Shown here: positions 16,431 through 21,938 of the stretch, piece after piece
Layout of the letters: every line of letters starts with the position of its first letter
How positions within the stretch are numbered: the first letter of the stretch is position 1
From: an uncultured archaeon
GTDB taxonomy: Archaea; Thermoproteota; Nitrososphaeria; Nitrososphaerales; Gagatemarchaeaceae
Length of the DNA: 64,000 nucleotides
NCBI GenBank assembly: GCA_963799775.1
Contig: CAWCYD010000003.1
Location: 672,001 to 736,000 of the forward strand
Reading direction: 5' to 3'
Translations under genes and position numbers: made by a program
The notes under the pieces: model-generated
Databases searched by the model: none
What the model saw: only the letters and a program-made list of their open reading frames with translations
Told to the model about the DNA's origin: nothing

Positions 16431-17370
16431 TTGTCATCCGAAAGAGATTTCTCAAGACTGATGAAGTTGCAAAGGGCTCTCGACAAGTGCCCTCGTTGTG
16501 GCAAGGGTCATATGGTCGTTGACAACACGGGCGGGGAGCTCGTTTGCAGTGCCTGCGGTTTCGTGGTCAAAGAAAAGATAGAGGAGACGGGTCCGGAGTG
16601 GCGGGCTTTCTCGAAGGAAGAGAAGGACGACAGGTCCAGAGGAGGGATGCCGACCTCGATCGCGATGCACGACATGGGGCTCGCGACGGTCATCGGCGGG
16701 ACGAACAAGGACGCGTCGGGCAAGTCTCTATCCGGGTCGATGAAGGCGACAGTGGAGAGGCTCAGGACATGGGACAGCAGGAGCCAAGTCCACGAACCCA
16801 TGGACAGGAACCTGAGGCAAGCTTTCAGCGAGCTCGACAGGCTCTCCGACAAGCTCTCTGTCTCAGAGGCCGTCATCGAAAAGGCTGCTTACATCTACAG
16901 AAAGGCGCTCGAGAGAGGTCTGGTGCGCGGCAGGTCGATCTCCGCGATCATTGCGGCATCGCTCTACGCTGCGTGCAGGGACAGGGAGACTCCGAGGGAC
17001 CCTGAAGGACCTCGCTGTGGTATCAAACGTGAAGAAGAAGGACATCGCCAGGTGCTACAGGCTCCTACTCAAGGAGATGGACATCAAGATGCCGGTTGTC
17101 GACCCGGCAAAGTGCGTCTCAAGGATCGCATCCAGGGCGAGCCTCTCCGAGAGGACCAAGAGGAGGGCATTAGAGATATTGAAGAAGGCCGAGGAAGCCA
17201 GGATCTCCGCAGGAAAGGACCCGATGGGGCTGGCCGCAGCCGCGCTCTACGTGTCTTGCACCCTCGAGGGAGAGGACAAGACTCAGAGGGACGTCGCGGA
17301 GGCCGCCGGGGTGACCGAGGTCACGATAAGGAACAGGTACAAGGGCCTGCGTTCCGCGCTGGGCATCTAG
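16431..17370 (+). CDS. tfb: Transcription initiation factor IIB (TFB); frameshift near 16995
   Basis: Zn ribbon CPRC...CSAC, GPEWRAF, HDMGL, GLVRGRSI, GKDPMGLAAAALY, TEVTIRNRYK. Confidence 0.96.
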
Positions 17371-17479
17371 ACGAGTTAGCAAGCGATCCCTGCACGGGAA
17401 GAAAATGGAAGGGAAATTCATATTCGCTTTACATAACCGGTAATATCCATTCACGGTCTGGACTTCAGGTCTCAAGTAC

Positions 17480-18651
17480 TTGTTTTCAGAGGAAGCCCAG
17501 CGTGAAGCCCAGCCCGATTCGAGCGCAAACATCGTCTCCTTGGTCAGGCTTCTCTCCGACATAGGCCCTGACATCGCCGAGATCTCCAGGCGTCTGGGGC
17601 AGTTCAAGGAGAGCGTGAGATACCGCTACAGGGAGAAGGCATAAAGCGAGGTTTTGCAATCAAGGCAGACGTGGACTACGGGGCCCTTGGGTTGACCAGG
17701 GTCGTGATGAAGCTCAGGTTTTCCCCGATGTACACGCAACAGTCCCACAAGATTCTCGAGGTGTTGAGCAATCTATCCTACCTCGTGGCATATGCTGGGA
17801 CGATGCCAAACGATCTCTACATAGTTCATGCAGGCGTCCCCACGGAGTTTACGGAGGAATTCCATCGACTGATGGAGAGCCTCAGGGACCGGGGGATGTT
17901 CATGTCGGTGGAGTTCTATGACTGCAACTGGTTCAGGGTCGCGCCGATGCGGGCGGAATGCTTCAACTTTGACGAGGGTGTCTGGGACTTCGATTGGAGC
18001 AACCCGCCACCGATAGAGGAAAAGGCTGCTCGTGCCACCATCAGCGAGAAGAAACCTCTCGACAAGGTGGACCTTCTCATCGTCAAGGAGCTTTGGAAGG
18101 ACAGTAACCGCTCGCTCGTAGAGATTCGCGAGGCCATCAAGAAAGTGAACGGCGTTGACATCAACTACAAGACTCTCGGGTGGCACTTCGCACACCACGT
18201 GTTGGGACACCACCTGATCAGAGACTACTCGATAACCTGGCACGGCATGAAGTACAACAGCGACCTTCAGCAAATCACGCGAGTCGGGAAGCACGGTTAT
18301 CTTGGGGCGTCGCTCATACTTCGAGAAGCAAATGAACAGGAAAAAATGCTAATGCGAGGCCAACTCAATCGTCTGCCGTTTCTGTGGTCCGAAGCGTCTG
18401 GCGAGGTCTACTACGCACAGCTCTTTTTCCCGCTAGAAATGATTAATGAGGCCCTGGAATATCTCAAGACTCTGCTAAAGCCGTACGGGGATAGAGCCGA
18501 GCTCTTCATTCTAGACAGAAGGGAGATGACGTCATTCACGATAGGTTATCAAATGTGGGACGAGCGAAGCTCCCAATGGAGCTTCGACCGTGAGCGTCTT
18601 CTTGGCCGTCTGGAAAATACACTTCTGAAGGTTGCGGACAGAAGAGCCTAG
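17480..18651 (+). CDS. Large tandem Lrp/AsnC-like transcription regulator (HTH-RAM x2); frameshift near 17640
   Basis: TTG 17480 frame gives IVSLVRLLSDIGPDIAEISRRLGQFKESVRYRY (HTH), joining ORF 17671..18651 (VDYGALGL; second HTH LDKVDLLIVKELWKDSNRSLVEI); both halves end in an aromatic F/W-D-x-x-x-(x)-W-x-F-D motif. Confidence 0.78.
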
Positions 18652-18776
18652 TCCGCGTTTCCGCCGCCTTCAAACGCCTTCAAGTGGACTCCTGCATGCA
18701 CACCATGCGCTGTCATGAAGAGTGAGAAGGCTCCAAAGACGACCAACGCGTACCTTACCTTCTGATCGAGTTCCAT
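18648..18776 (-). CDS. 42-aa peptide with signal/TM segment: MELDQKVRYALVVFGAFSLFMTAHGVHAGVHLKAFEGGGNAD
   Basis: Hand-translated ATG 18776 to TAG 18648; TATA box 24-31 nt upstream (leaderless spacing); charged N-terminus, hydrophobic core, polar tail; stop overlaps the regulator stop. Confidence 0.7.
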   Translation of the reverse strand: MELDQKVRYALVVFGAFSLFMTAHGVHAGVHLKAFEGGGNAD

Positions 18777-18795
18777 GGAAACAGTCTTCTGAATC

Positions 18796-18817
18796 CAGAT
18801 TAATAAATCTGCGCTTT
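18796..18817 (-). promoter_or_regulatory. BRE/TATA promoter of the peptide gene embedded in inverted repeat CAGATT-N4-AATCTG
   Basis: Minus strand aaagcgcagaTTTATTAAtctg; palindrome arms 18796-18801 and 18806-18811. Confidence 0.6.
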
Positions 18818-18931
18818 GCATGACCAAAAGGCCATTTGTGCGATGTAAATTCTAACGTTATTCTCAGCAAATGGGTCAGTTATTGCATGATAGAGCGGCA
18901 TCCCGCCTATGCGAATTCTAAGGCCCTGCTT

Positions 18932-20065
18932 CTAGATTGGCGCCTTGCCTTTGAGCACGCGCTTCAGCAGCTCATTGAAGACGATGAGCGTCCCGGAGCC
19001 ACCGAGGAGAAACACGATGACCACGGTCGGGATGTAGTCGAGGGGGTTGCCCGTGTTCGAGGTCCACGGGACGCCCCAGACCGCTTGGGCGAAGAACGAG
19101 AAGATGCTCCCTACGTAGTCTATGGACCAGTGAAGGAGCAGGCTGGTGTGGAGCCCGTACTTGATGTAGAGATAGCCAAGCGCGAGTCCGGCCAGCGCGG
19201 CCTCGCTTATCTTTCCTGGACCCCAGCCCGACCCCGAGGCGTAGTGCGCGTAGCCGAACATTATCGAGGACAAGACCAGGAAGGCGTAGACGACGGGCCT
19301 GATCGCCCGTATCTTCGTAGAGTCCTCCGCCCGTGCCGGGAAGAGGGAAGGGCCAGTCGTCTCGAACGAGGCCACCGTCTCGATGTCGTCTGCCTCGTCG
19401 GCGTCCCACAACGAAGAGGGACGCCAGAGAGCCTTCACGATTTTCCTGGGCGAGAACTCCCTGAACATGACCAGGCCCAGGACAAGCACGGGCACCCCGA
19501 TCATGATGAGCCGGAAGGAGGTCTCCTCCAGAAGTGGCGCGAGCGTGAAGTCAACGAGTAAGGAGAAGGGGTCTCCCGTCAGAGAGCCCGTGGATATGCC
19601 GGCGGAGTTCTGCGCTGTGTCGACCAGCAGGGTCACCAGGCTCGTGGCCCCCAGGAGCACCATCATCGCGGCCATAGGGTTCGTGAAGAGCGCCTCGTAG
19701 CCCTGGGTGGCGGCTCCCCTGAGCGACCTCCAAAATCCGATCCCCTGCTTCAGCGCGAGAATCACGCACGCGAGATAGGCGACCGAGCAGACAAGGAACA
19801 GCACTCCTAGGTTCCCCGATACGGGCACCTGGACGCTGGTGAAGACCACGTCGAGGTTGATCCCGTAGATGGGCGTTGATGCGGTGTAGTTGTTGGAGAG
19901 GTGGGCGCCGAAGACCGTGTAGACCCCCACGGGGAAGGAGACGAGCATCATCCCCAAGGTGAAGATCAGCACCGCGTCAAGGACCAGTAGCCATCTCGTC
20001 CAGGACCATCCTCCCGACTCGACCGCTCGCTGCTGTTGCTGCGGTTCGTTTGGGGGTAAGGACAA
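18932..20065 (-). CDS. CPBP/CAAX (Abi/Rce1-like) intramembrane glutamic protease
   Basis: APLLEETSFR (EExxxR), FGYAH (FxxxH), LLHWSID motifs; multiple TM helices; probable TTG start at 20065. Confidence 0.88.
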   Translation of the reverse strand: MSLPPNEPQQQQRAVESGGWSWTRWLLVLDAVLIFTLGMMLVSFPVGVYTVFGAHLSNNYTASTPIYGINLDVVFTSVQVPVSGNLGVLFLVCSVAYLACVILALKQGIGFWRSLRGAATQGYEALFTNPMAAMMVLLGATSLVTLLVDTAQNSAGISTGSLTGDPFSLLVDFTLAPLLEETSFRLIMIGVPVLVLGLVMFREFSPRKIVKALWRPSSLWDADEADDIETVASFETTGPSLFPARAEDSTKIRAIRPVVYAFLVLSSIMFGYAHYASGSGWGPGKISEAALAGLALGYLYIKYGLHTSLLLHWSIDYVGSIFSFFAQAVWGVPWTSNTGNPLDYIPTVVIVFLLGGSGTLIVFNELLKRVLKGKAPI

Positions 20066-20070
20066 CTCTT

Positions 20071-20334
20071 CTAGGGGTCTCTGGCTCTCGCCTGGTCTGC
20101 TGAACGGTCCTTTCTCTCTGCCTCGTCCTCGCTCCGCCTGTCCTCTAGGTAGACGTATCCCTTGTAACCGCAATTCTTGCAGTAGTAGTCCTGCGGGACG
20201 AGCCAGCCGCCCAGCTCGCTGCCCTTGAAGAGGGGGGAGAGACAGTTGACGCAGAGTTTTGGCACTGGCTTGCTGGGGTTCCTCCTCACGAGGCGCGGCA
20301 TCCCTTCGTCCGCCTCCTCCTCAGTGGACGGCAA
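20071..20334 (-). CDS. Small zinc-ribbon protein
   Basis: CVNC...GWLVPQDYYCKNCGYKG. Confidence 0.75.
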   Translation of the reverse strand: MPSTEEEADEGMPRLVRRNPSKPVPKLCVNCLSPLFKGSELGGWLVPQDYYCKNCGYKGYVYLEDRRSEDEAERKDRSADQARARDP

Positions 20335-21179: not shown

Positions 21180-21378
21180 AATCGTCTCGCAGTCCGAATC
21201 ATGTCATCACAAATAGGTTATGTTAGCAAGATGACCAGTTCGCCTGCAGGCTACGCCTTGATCGTTCATTCGCGGTTGCAACCGCGCTCTTTTGGGTGCG
21301 AAGGTCAGAAGGACAGCTGTTTGAAAATGGGCGGGTATAACCGCCGATGGGAATTGATATTGATATTGAATCGATTGC

Positions 21379-21816
21379 TGCGTGACCTGCGGGATCCTCC
21401 TTACAGAAGAGAATTGGACGCTCGGGAACTGAAGAAGGCGCTACCGAACCTGCAAATATTGTCACGCTGCCAGGGTGAGGGCCTATTATCGCGAGCACAA
21501 GACGGAAAGGAACGACTACTCGCGTAGGCATCGTGAGAAAGCGAAACTTGCAGTGCTGTCTCATTACGGAGGAGATCCACCTCATTGCAAATGCTGCAGA
21601 ATCTCAGACATTGAATTTCTGACGTTAGATCATTTGAATGATGACGGCGCCAAGCATCGACGAGATATCGGCTATCCTAATTCGGGCCACTTCTACTTCT
21701 GGTTGATCAAGAACGGCTATCCTGCCGAGGTTCCGCTTCAAGTGTTATGTTGGAACTGCCAATGGGGCAAGAAAAGCAAAAGAGGATGCCCACACGCTAT
21801 GACCCAGAGTAACTAG
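21379..21816 (+). CDS. Small HNH-like endonuclease; N-terminal Zn finger cut off by an in-frame TGA (possible pseudogene)
   Basis: CKCC...FLTLDHLNDDG...LQVLCWNCQWGK in ORF 21475..21816; same frame upstream reads CVTCGILLTEENWTLGN*RRRYRTCKYCH with TGA at 21430-32. Confidence 0.72.
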
Positions 21817-21818
21817 TC

Positions 21819-21938
21819 TTGGGCGACGAATACTGCTATTGCGGGACAAAGATGGTCCAGATCCAGAGTTGCCGATATCGGTGCCCGAACTGCGGGGCCC
21901 TGCTGGATTGCGAGGACGTCTCCGGCCTCCCAAAGTAG
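21819..21938 (+). CDS. 39-aa CPxCG zinc-finger microprotein MGDEYCYCGTKMVQIQSCRYRCPNCGALLDCEDVSGLPK
   Basis: Hand translation TTG 21819 to TAG 21938; six Cys including CPNCG; below the ORF-track cutoff. Confidence 0.75.
   Translation: MGDEYCYCGTKMVQIQSCRYRCPNCGALLDCEDVSGLPK

Follow-up and report, generated by a model that had tools for sequence, protein, structure and literature searches.

A lineage-specific regulator–micropeptide cassette in Gagatemarchaeaceae-like Nitrososphaerota, a candidate receptor–propeptide pair

We analysed 64,000 nt of contig CAWCYD010000003.1 (positions 672,001 to 736,000; assembly GCA_963799775.1) from an uncultured archaeon of the family Gagatemarchaeaceae. This stretch, hereafter the window, carries a gene for a double Lrp/AsnC-like regulator (17480-18651, + strand) that converges on an open reading frame (ORF) of 42 codons (18651-18776, − strand). 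Comparison with related genomes indicates that the locus is one copy of a two-gene cassette specific to Gagatemarchaeaceae-like Nitrososphaerota. The regulator and the peptide unit encoded by its partner are probably a physically interacting cognate pair, wherever they meet. By analogy with Rap/Phr, AimR/AimP or Rgg/SHP, the cassette may encode a receptor together with its cognate propeptide, a reading that we advance tentatively and weigh below against three others.

The micropeptide gene and its pairing with the regulator

The initial annotation had proposed that the 42-codon ORF is a peptide gene, and this was borne out. The ORF begins with ATG and is preceded by a TATA-like box. Among 25 family loci from the same genome and its relatives, 19 carried a homologous, convergent ATG ORF of 38-48 amino acids (aa), whose stop sits -27 to +32 nt from the regulator stop. 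The other six comprised one locus with a divergent 77-aa partner (L006), one degenerate copy without a start (L024), one at a contig end (L019) and three without any such ORF (L003-L005). Substitutions at codon positions 1/2/3 numbered 309/194/479 and 296/83/637 in two groups, and the peptide frame was the sole stop-free frame in 19/19 loci. A chance ORF or non-coding conservation was therefore rejected, and these patterns indicate that the ORF is a real coding gene.

We refer to peptides of this kind as type 1. The 63 distinct examples have 38-48 aa (median 40) and a near-invariant N-terminus (M-T/E-L-D-E/Q-K-I/V-R-Y-G), with a hydrophobic stretch at residues 10-26 that is rich in Gly, Ala and Ser. 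Gly25, after the hydrophobic stretch, was invariant in 63/63 peptides, and L/V and mostly His come next. The general tail reads P-L-E-x-x-G-G-x-G-x-x, and that of the window's subclade H-x-G-x-H-L-K/R-A-L/F-E-x-G-G-x-x-D; the window peptide itself starts with a charged N-terminus, is rich in His next to the membrane segment and ends in an acidic tail rich in Gly. In public data there were at least 689 peptide clusters, the named ones in the 120 rows listed being 'hypothetical protein' and none having a Pfam domain. Fusion forms of the peptide were also considered and rejected: 21 longer matches were upstream gene-caller extensions, in which the peptide was always C-terminal (6/21 inspected). 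Type 1 genes standing alone, with no family regulator within ~4 kb, were seen at G000:C3:1840812-1840928 (L028, L108) and G018:C3:164481-164597 (L109), which are not syntenic; the lone gene of the source genome has two small ORFs forming a PIN-like pair nearby, as well as a membrane protein of 104 aa.

The last residues of the peptide vary between regulator clades and are alike within them, so that tails track regulator clades. Receptor–peptide co-variation had been suggested as a check, and regulator and peptide distances did correlate (Spearman 0.71). However, such a correlation is expected from co-inheritance and was not used as evidence of co-evolution. Within clades, the ratio of nonsynonymous to synonymous polymorphism (pN/pS) was 0.13-0.35 for the N-terminus, 0.09-0.53 for the hydrophobic stretch and 0.20-0.71 for the tail, which had the highest value in 6/7 clades; only this ranking is meaningful since synonymous sites are near saturation. 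The low constraint on the tail would fit either pherotype divergence or lower importance.

The pairing of the two genes extends well beyond the window. A peptide profile gave 67 matches in 26 of 41 genomes, 58 of them convergent to, and within 400 bp of, a regulator-family match. This comparison used 122 of the 141 regulator rows, the 19 left out being short pieces split by frameshifts or contig ends. The peptide was present for 46 of the 56 regulator matches with E < 1e-60 versus 11 of the 66 weaker ones. From public data 79 loci were kept, all from Nitrososphaerota/Thaumarchaeota or archaeal metagenome-assembled genomes (MAGs), one being Candidatus Gagatemarchaeum stordalenia. A convergent-strand peptide was found in 73 of these, five times in disrupted or startless form (L089, L091, L094, L097, L103); the 6 loci without a peptide included 3 cut by contig ends. 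The expected recurrence of small ORFs beside regulator homologues was thus seen in both sets, though many of the public loci belong to the 41 genomes themselves and all are relatives, which means that these numbers are not independent. When the class was sampled, the profile had matches in 5 of 301 genomes, with 0/180 and 0/39 in the two largest families.

A maximum-likelihood tree of 88 rows placed all type-1-linked regulators in one 82-row clade (SH-aLRT 87) with several paralogue subclades, and within this clade only L072 lacked a peptide. Furthermore, two single-copy family members from other families of the order (L127, L128) have convergent type-1-like ORFs of 40-43 aa. The distribution indicates that the peptide gene is tied to the regulator family through several duplications, and the small ORF was the regulator's one constant partner across loci.

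Peptide promoters and candidate operators

A TATA-like element, centred ~27 nt before the peptide ATG, lies at 18796-18811 (− strand) within a 16-nt near-palindrome, CAGATTTATTAATCTG; the peptide gene thus has the TATA box of its own at leaderless spacing that had been claimed for it. Across the loci compared, a TTAAAT/TTTATAAAT-type box occurs at about -30 to -23 before the peptide ATG. The forms of the box are TTTATWAAT or TTAAAT/TTAAAA, and its spacing of ~23-30 nt fits leaderless transcripts. The near-palindrome was unique in the window, and 0/100 shuffles reached the 4 observed matches, which represent 2 sites read on both strands, the second with 3 mismatches. A copy of it before the regulator gene was sought and not found; within the window it stands at the peptide promoter only.

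Clade-specific inverted repeats over the TATA box and TFB-recognition element (BRE) of peptide genes were seen at 18796-18811 in the window, at L036, L040, L043 and L100 (-40 to -27), and at L110-L115. They are CAGATTTATAAATCTG-like in the window's clade and take the forms TAAGCATATGCTTA in a second clade and TAAGCTTA in the clade with type 3 peptides (see below). It is possible that these repeats are operators. Lrp-type regulators often control adjacent genes, and the repeats, which overlap TATA/BRE of peptide promoters in several clades, would also suit a local regulator that senses a small molecule and has the micropeptide gene as its nearest target, the product being a small effector, secreted or in the membrane, such as a stress, adhesion or archaeocin-like peptide, that makes no contact with the regulator. 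The existence of orphan peptide genes agrees with this, as does the gene for a CPBP protease that adjoins the window's peptide gene, since bacterial CPBP/Abi proteins have a link to bacteriocin immunity. However, the pairing outlived many duplications during which every other neighbour was exchanged, tails vary from one regulator clade to another, and the fused pseudo-dimer is unlike ordinary amino-acid-sensing Lrp octamers. We consider it unlikely that the peptide is a regulatory target and nothing else.

Family and predicted fold of the regulator

On its own, the window's regulator copy gave no Pfam or NCBIfam match at E up to 0.1. Among 22 family members, the AsnC-type helix-turn-helix (HTH) PF13404 was matched by 20 (best E 2.8e-8) and PF13412 (HTH_24) by 13; PF01037 (RAM) gave no match in any of them at E up to 1. 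A family profile searched against solved structures found archaeal Lrp/AsnC chains (E 0.003-0.005) and did not find the fused sirohaem decarboxylase NirDL. Both HTHs of the profile align to ST1022 and PH0061; HTH1 has a basic recognition helix, and the recognition-helix pattern of this first HTH aligns with ST1022. This helix and the inverted repeats at the peptide promoters are indirect signs that the protein may bind specific DNA sequences.

An AlphaFold2 model was made of an intact orthologue (L007) that is 70% identical to the window regulator. The model (predicted local distance difference test, pLDDT, 87.6; predicted template-modelling score, pTM, 0.85) has the order HTH, βαββαβ-like domain, linker, HTH, βαββαβ-like domain. 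Its residues 14-164 and 191-359 each match whole Lrp/AsnC chains, RAM included (Z 7-8, 140-146 residues, root-mean-square deviation (rmsd) 3.1-4.0). According to the model, the regulator is a fused tandem pair of Lrp/AsnC-like halves, each with a winged HTH (wHTH) and a RAM-like domain. The pseudo-dimeric Lrp regulator of the initial annotation was therefore upheld at the level of fold, by these matches and by PF13404 in 20/22 members. As in the archaeal Lrp/AsnC proteins ST1022/Grp, PH1519/FL11 and LysM, each half is predicted to consist of an AsnC-type wHTH followed by a ferredoxin-like RAM-type domain. The regulator differs from them in that two halves here share one chain of ~390 aa with a WDFDW linker, and in that the RAM-like parts have no PF01037 match. 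We know of no adjacent cognate peptide for the Lrp/AsnC family.

The closest structure to the whole model was NirDL (Foldseek E 9.6e-9). In a comparison with 4ch7, Z was 16.4 with 290/309 residues aligned at an rmsd of 4.8, and the next unrelated row reached Z 9.5. NirDL and AhbA-AhbB share the double Lrp-like architecture, fused or heterodimeric, and this raises the question of whether the protein is a regulator at all. It might instead be an enzyme or a peptide-handling protein, i.e., a divergent decarboxylase of NirDL/AhbAB type or a wHTH protein that recognises or modifies a multi-core peptide precursor, such precursors being known among ribosomal natural products. The distribution of PF17805 (AsnC_trans_reg2) can be read in the same direction: it was found in none of the 16 genomes of the genus searched, while ammonia-oxidiser-like families within the order have a PF17805 protein with two fused domains (G027, G032, G035, G038). 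Neither was it found anywhere in the source genome at E up to 0.01, with 3 control genomes positive.

However, the family itself gave no PF17805 match in 22 members at E up to 1, and these are the members of which 20 have an AsnC-type HTH. Identity to NirDL/AhbA-AhbB is ~10-12%, the profile retrieves Lrp regulators and not NirDL among solved chains, and one genome (G037) holds both PF17805 and a regulator-family member. No modifying enzymes are conserved nearby, and the proteins compared here form a multigene family with peptide partners, with 2-12 matches in each of 22 genomes of the genus. An enzymatic or peptide-handling role in place of regulation is thus very improbable, and on sequence grounds the regulator is not a recognisable sirohaem decarboxylase. 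A distant double-Lrp member of the family could still be a candidate for that enzyme in these haem-using, PF17805-negative archaea.

There are 6 family members in the source genome, and overall 31 of 41 genomes were matched at E up to 0.001. Public data held at least 742 regulator clusters, under names such as hypothetical, 'DNA-binding Lrp family transcriptional regulator' or 'winged helix-turn-helix'. Two distant members, L004 (G000:C1:15284-16165) and L005 (G000:C3:601550-602434), seem to have arisen by a recent duplication, being ~83% identical to each other; no partner ORF was seen for either.

Other precursor architectures

Where a family member had no type 1 peptide, convergent ORFs were sought by a rule that asks for ATG plus a hydrophobic stretch or a Gly motif and may miss some. 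Three further builds were recognised. Type 2, at L006 and 6 orthologous loci, is an ORF of 60-82 aa whose basic N-terminus leads into a hydrophobic stretch; a His-rich segment and 2-3 tandem GDPGGxGxPN units come after it, and an eighth locus has a 44-aa variant. Type 4 (6 loci) has 44-48 aa: the N-terminus is again basic, the hydrophobic stretch is followed by HG(L/V)HPLH, and a single GDP(I/V)GxGxPx unit stands at the C-terminus.

Type 3 was seen in one paralogue clade, in which 5 of 6 loci have an ATG ORF without a hydrophobic stretch; L130 provides a sixth example. These ORFs encode either 16 aa with one DP(I/M)GGxGPS unit or longer products (39, 62 and 63 aa) with 3 or 5 copies of DPIGGFGPSY in tandem, and a conserved TAAGCTTAAT-type box precedes them. 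A degenerate DNA pattern for the unit gave 15 matches in 7 of 41 genomes, and the reversed-pattern control gave 0. All 14 matches within the genus (6 genomes) were convergent to the regulator of the type 3 clade. Within one gene the units are identical in protein and differ in DNA (the pattern permits differences solely at its degenerate positions), which may point to selection on the units.

In all precursor types the ORF ends directly after a unit. The constancy of a C-terminal Gly/Pro unit over four different builds points to the unit, and not the membrane segment, as the functional part of the peptide. The tail had already been taken for the active moiety in the initial annotation; this gains support from the Gly/Pro units kept in other clades. 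Several known motifs were considered and set aside. For a double-glycine leader, the E/L/I spacing before GG does not fit and merely 3-4 residues follow; a class III (prepilin-type) signal would have K/R at -2, which is absent; RTX GGxGxD repeats have Asp where Pro stands here, and the units are too few; in an archaeosortase C-terminal signal, motif and membrane segment are in the reversed order.

Possible peptide signalling and a non-diffusible alternative

If the cassette encodes a receptor and its propeptide, it might work as follows. The peptide would be made from its own leaderless promoter. In forms with a membrane segment, the hydrophobic N-terminal part would serve as a signal or anchor and put the short C-terminal part outside the cell. 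Proteolysis would then free the C-terminal Gly/Pro-rich unit, around the ...EGGGNAD end in the window and as DPxGxGxP-type units in other clades, at times several per precursor. The unit would be re-imported into the cell, where the fused regulator would hold it in its asymmetric RAM-like pocket, and binding of the regulator at promoters would be altered, including the peptide promoter with its inverted repeats over TATA/BRE. The scheme builds on gene structure, coding status, the conserved pairing, the predicted fold, the architecture of the units and the promoter elements as described above; topology, cleavage, export and import, binding and autoregulation are the parts of it that we infer.

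Two features of the precursors suggest such processing. The invariant Gly after the hydrophobic stretch and the basic N-termini of types 2 and 4 fit a signal-peptide-like role of the hydrophobic N-terminal parts, and precursors in which the last of several units is followed at once by the stop are typically those of processed peptides. The source genome encodes two PF00496 oligopeptide-binding proteins of ABC importers, and oligopeptide ABC transporters are reported for Gagatemarchaeaceae in their genome paper (PMC10640624).

The RRNPPA/Rgg systems (Rap/Phr, PlcR/PapR, NprR/NprX, AimR/AimP, Rgg/SHP, ComR/ComS) offer the nearest functional parallel. They too place a regulator gene beside a precursor gene of 16-60 aa, the precursors having a signal-like N-terminus or none and a candidate active part at the extreme C-terminus; there are also many diverged pairs per genome, and some precursors hold several units. 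The convergent arrangement is known for some Rgg/SHP pairs. Unlike those systems, the host here is an archaeon, the receptor would be a fused Lrp/AsnC pair and not a tetratricopeptide repeat (TPR) protein, and the cassette is known from genes and a model. The units are Gly/Pro-rich, and the type 1 N-terminus is acidic plus basic and highly conserved. No TPR protein was among the listed structural matches of the L007 model, and since the predicted fold is a double wHTH plus ferredoxin-like one, the cassette regulator is not a member of RRNPPA/Rgg; the likeness is functional at most. RRNPPA systems include propeptides that each hold several pheromones (PMC11343458).

Several observations weigh against the receptor–propeptide reading. 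No convincing partner was found in 28/35 distant loci, nor at L003-L005, L072, L106, L107, L114, L123-L126 and L129. Nine of the 67 peptide genes have no listed regulator, although 2 of these lie beside left-out regulator pieces (G022:C2) and 1 at a contig start. Type 3 precursors are without any export signal. In type 1, the N-terminus and the hydrophobic stretch are the most constrained parts and the tail the least, which is unusual for a plain signal peptide, and the N-terminus carries two acidic residues and is net neutral. As far as ligands of Lrp/AsnC RAM domains are known, they are amino acids and not peptides. A word search of a 2010 review of archaeal Lrp regulators (PMC2995911) found no mention of fused forms or peptide ligands. 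Finally, the genomes compared are related and their counts overstate independence.

The main rival to the receptor–propeptide reading is that the micropeptide is a non-diffusible partner of the regulator. It would not be released; sitting in the membrane, or in the cytoplasm if it has no membrane segment, it would bind the regulator directly and tether or switch it, and it could be an anti-regulator or a co-sensor of some condition in the membrane or outside the cell, for example pH or metals via juxtamembrane histidines. The strong constraint on the type 1 N-terminus and hydrophobic stretch would be explained in this way. The small residues in which that stretch is rich fit helix packing, the membrane stretch leads into a His-rich segment in the window peptide and in types 2 and 4, and type 3, without an export signal, could act inside the cell. 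A gene for a metal transporter (VIT1) is moreover divergent from the peptide gene in 25 loci. However, tandem units running exactly to the stop are seen more typically in processed precursors; in types 2 and 4 the basic N-terminus suggests that the tail is outside and hence away from a cytoplasmic regulator, and the ~10 residues of a cytoplasmic N-terminus would offer a very small docking surface. Taking both sides together, we regard a non-diffusible partner as a serious but rather unlikely explanation.

Bacillota and their phages are well known to communicate by peptides that have cognate cytoplasmic receptors. For Archaea, neither such a system nor a regulator–peptide cassette of the present kind came up in listings and abstracts of the open-access literature, and the main text of the Gagatemarchaeaceae genome paper (PMC10640624) has no mention of Lrp, AsnC or CPBP. 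In its widest form the receptor–propeptide reading would mean that non-ammonia-oxidising Nitrososphaerota (Gagatemarchaeaceae and a few neighbours) signal from cell to cell by means of ribosomal peptides, the intracellular receptors being fused Lrp/AsnC proteins, with several orthogonal duplicated pairs per genome and precursors ranging from signal-peptide forms to leaderless multi-copy ones; this wide form is conceivable but doubtful. Were peptide signalling true, Archaea would have their first known family of peptide quorum sensing, and RAM-type receptors their first known member that binds peptides. If the units are ligands, RAM-type domains can sense peptides, the fusion of two Lrp halves creates an asymmetric receptor, and receptor–pheromone diversification evolved independently in Archaea. 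Under the rivals too, a transcription factor of archaea would be functionally linked to a micropeptide in a conserved way, and the whole cassette family is conserved in abundant, uncultured archaea of acid soil and peat.

Neighbouring genes

The gene for a CPBP (Rce1-like) intramembrane protease lies upstream of the peptide gene on the same strand, as initially annotated (18932-20065/20173, − strand; its start, TTG at 20173 or 20065, is uncertain). It matched PF02517 with E 2.5e-9 (37.7 bits against a cut-off of 22.4), and EExxxR, FxxxH and HxxxD-type motifs, which we take to be those of the family, are visible in its translation. In staphylococci, the precursor AgrD has ~45 aa and a membrane-associating N-terminus, the CPBP-type protein MroQ takes part in its maturation, and the receptor is a membrane histidine kinase. 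The likeness to AgrD/AgrB/MroQ consists of a small precursor together with a CPBP-family protease. However, the CPBP gene adjoins the cassette only in the window's orthologue group (8/24 other loci of the first set; 7/79 public loci) and other clades have other neighbours, so the involvement of this protease, which had been suggested for the module as such, was not sustained. It may mature peptides of the window's type.

The TFB gene upstream was likewise confined to the window's orthologue group (8/79 loci). In 25/79 loci (L044-L062 and others, the largest clade) a gene of the VIT1 family (iron/manganese transporter) is divergent from the peptide gene and shares its intergenic region, which hints that the regulon of the largest regulator clade concerns metal homeostasis. 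V4R, LysE and glycosyltransferase genes were the other neighbours among loci. A defence or toxin–antitoxin system was also considered; PADLOC gave no match for the regulator, the peptides or the CPBP protein.

Locus layout and frameshift of the regulator

The regulator had been described as one intact protein of ~390 aa, which does not hold for this assembly. Here it is split over two frames, one ORF covering 17480-17644 (54 aa) and another 17671-18651 (326 aa; open from 17572). Comparison of the window DNA with 8 orthologues located a 1-nt deletion in a short G/A run (17636-17641) that joins the frames, and the downstream frame carries on the orthologous sequence past it. The N-terminal piece (17480-17644, + strand) has a TTG start at a position common to the orthologue group, contains the first HTH, ends at a TAA created by the frameshift and is 64-79% identical to the N-termini of intact orthologues, which have open frames of 390-405 aa. 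The main piece (17638-18651, + strand) holds the first RAM-like domain, the WDFDW linker, the second wHTH and the second RAM-like domain, and ends with TAG at 18649-18651.

The TFB (TFIIB) gene upstream (16431-17370, + strand) is also in two frames, the Zn ribbon and first repeat in one and the second TFIIB repeat in the other, owing to a 1-nt insertion, a surplus G in a run of G near 16995. With two homopolymer indels in a span of 650 nt, an assembly error is the likelier cause. The frameshift of the regulator is thus likely an assembly indel, and a real pseudogene in the window is the less likely alternative. The assembly has 3 contigs and an estimated completeness of 81.7%.

The stop of the peptide gene (18648-18650; gene 18648-18776, − strand) overlaps the regulator TAG inside the 4-nt ctag at 18648-18651, in agreement with the overlapping convergent stops first noticed there. 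No intrinsic terminator between the convergent genes was detected by a simple scan, which is bacterial in design. The regulator and peptide genes also form a stretch of low G+C, as the first inspection had noted: 0.49-0.56 over 17300-18950 versus 0.60-0.67 on both sides.

An 87-aa ORF (20071-20334, − strand) immediately precedes the CPBP gene on its strand; it had no Pfam match at E up to 0.1 and encodes two CxxC pairs in a zinc-ribbon-like pattern. A second low-G+C patch (0.48-0.51) was seen at 21200-21900; the 113-aa ORF within it (21475-21816) gave no Pfam match at E up to 0.001 and carries Cys/His-rich motifs.

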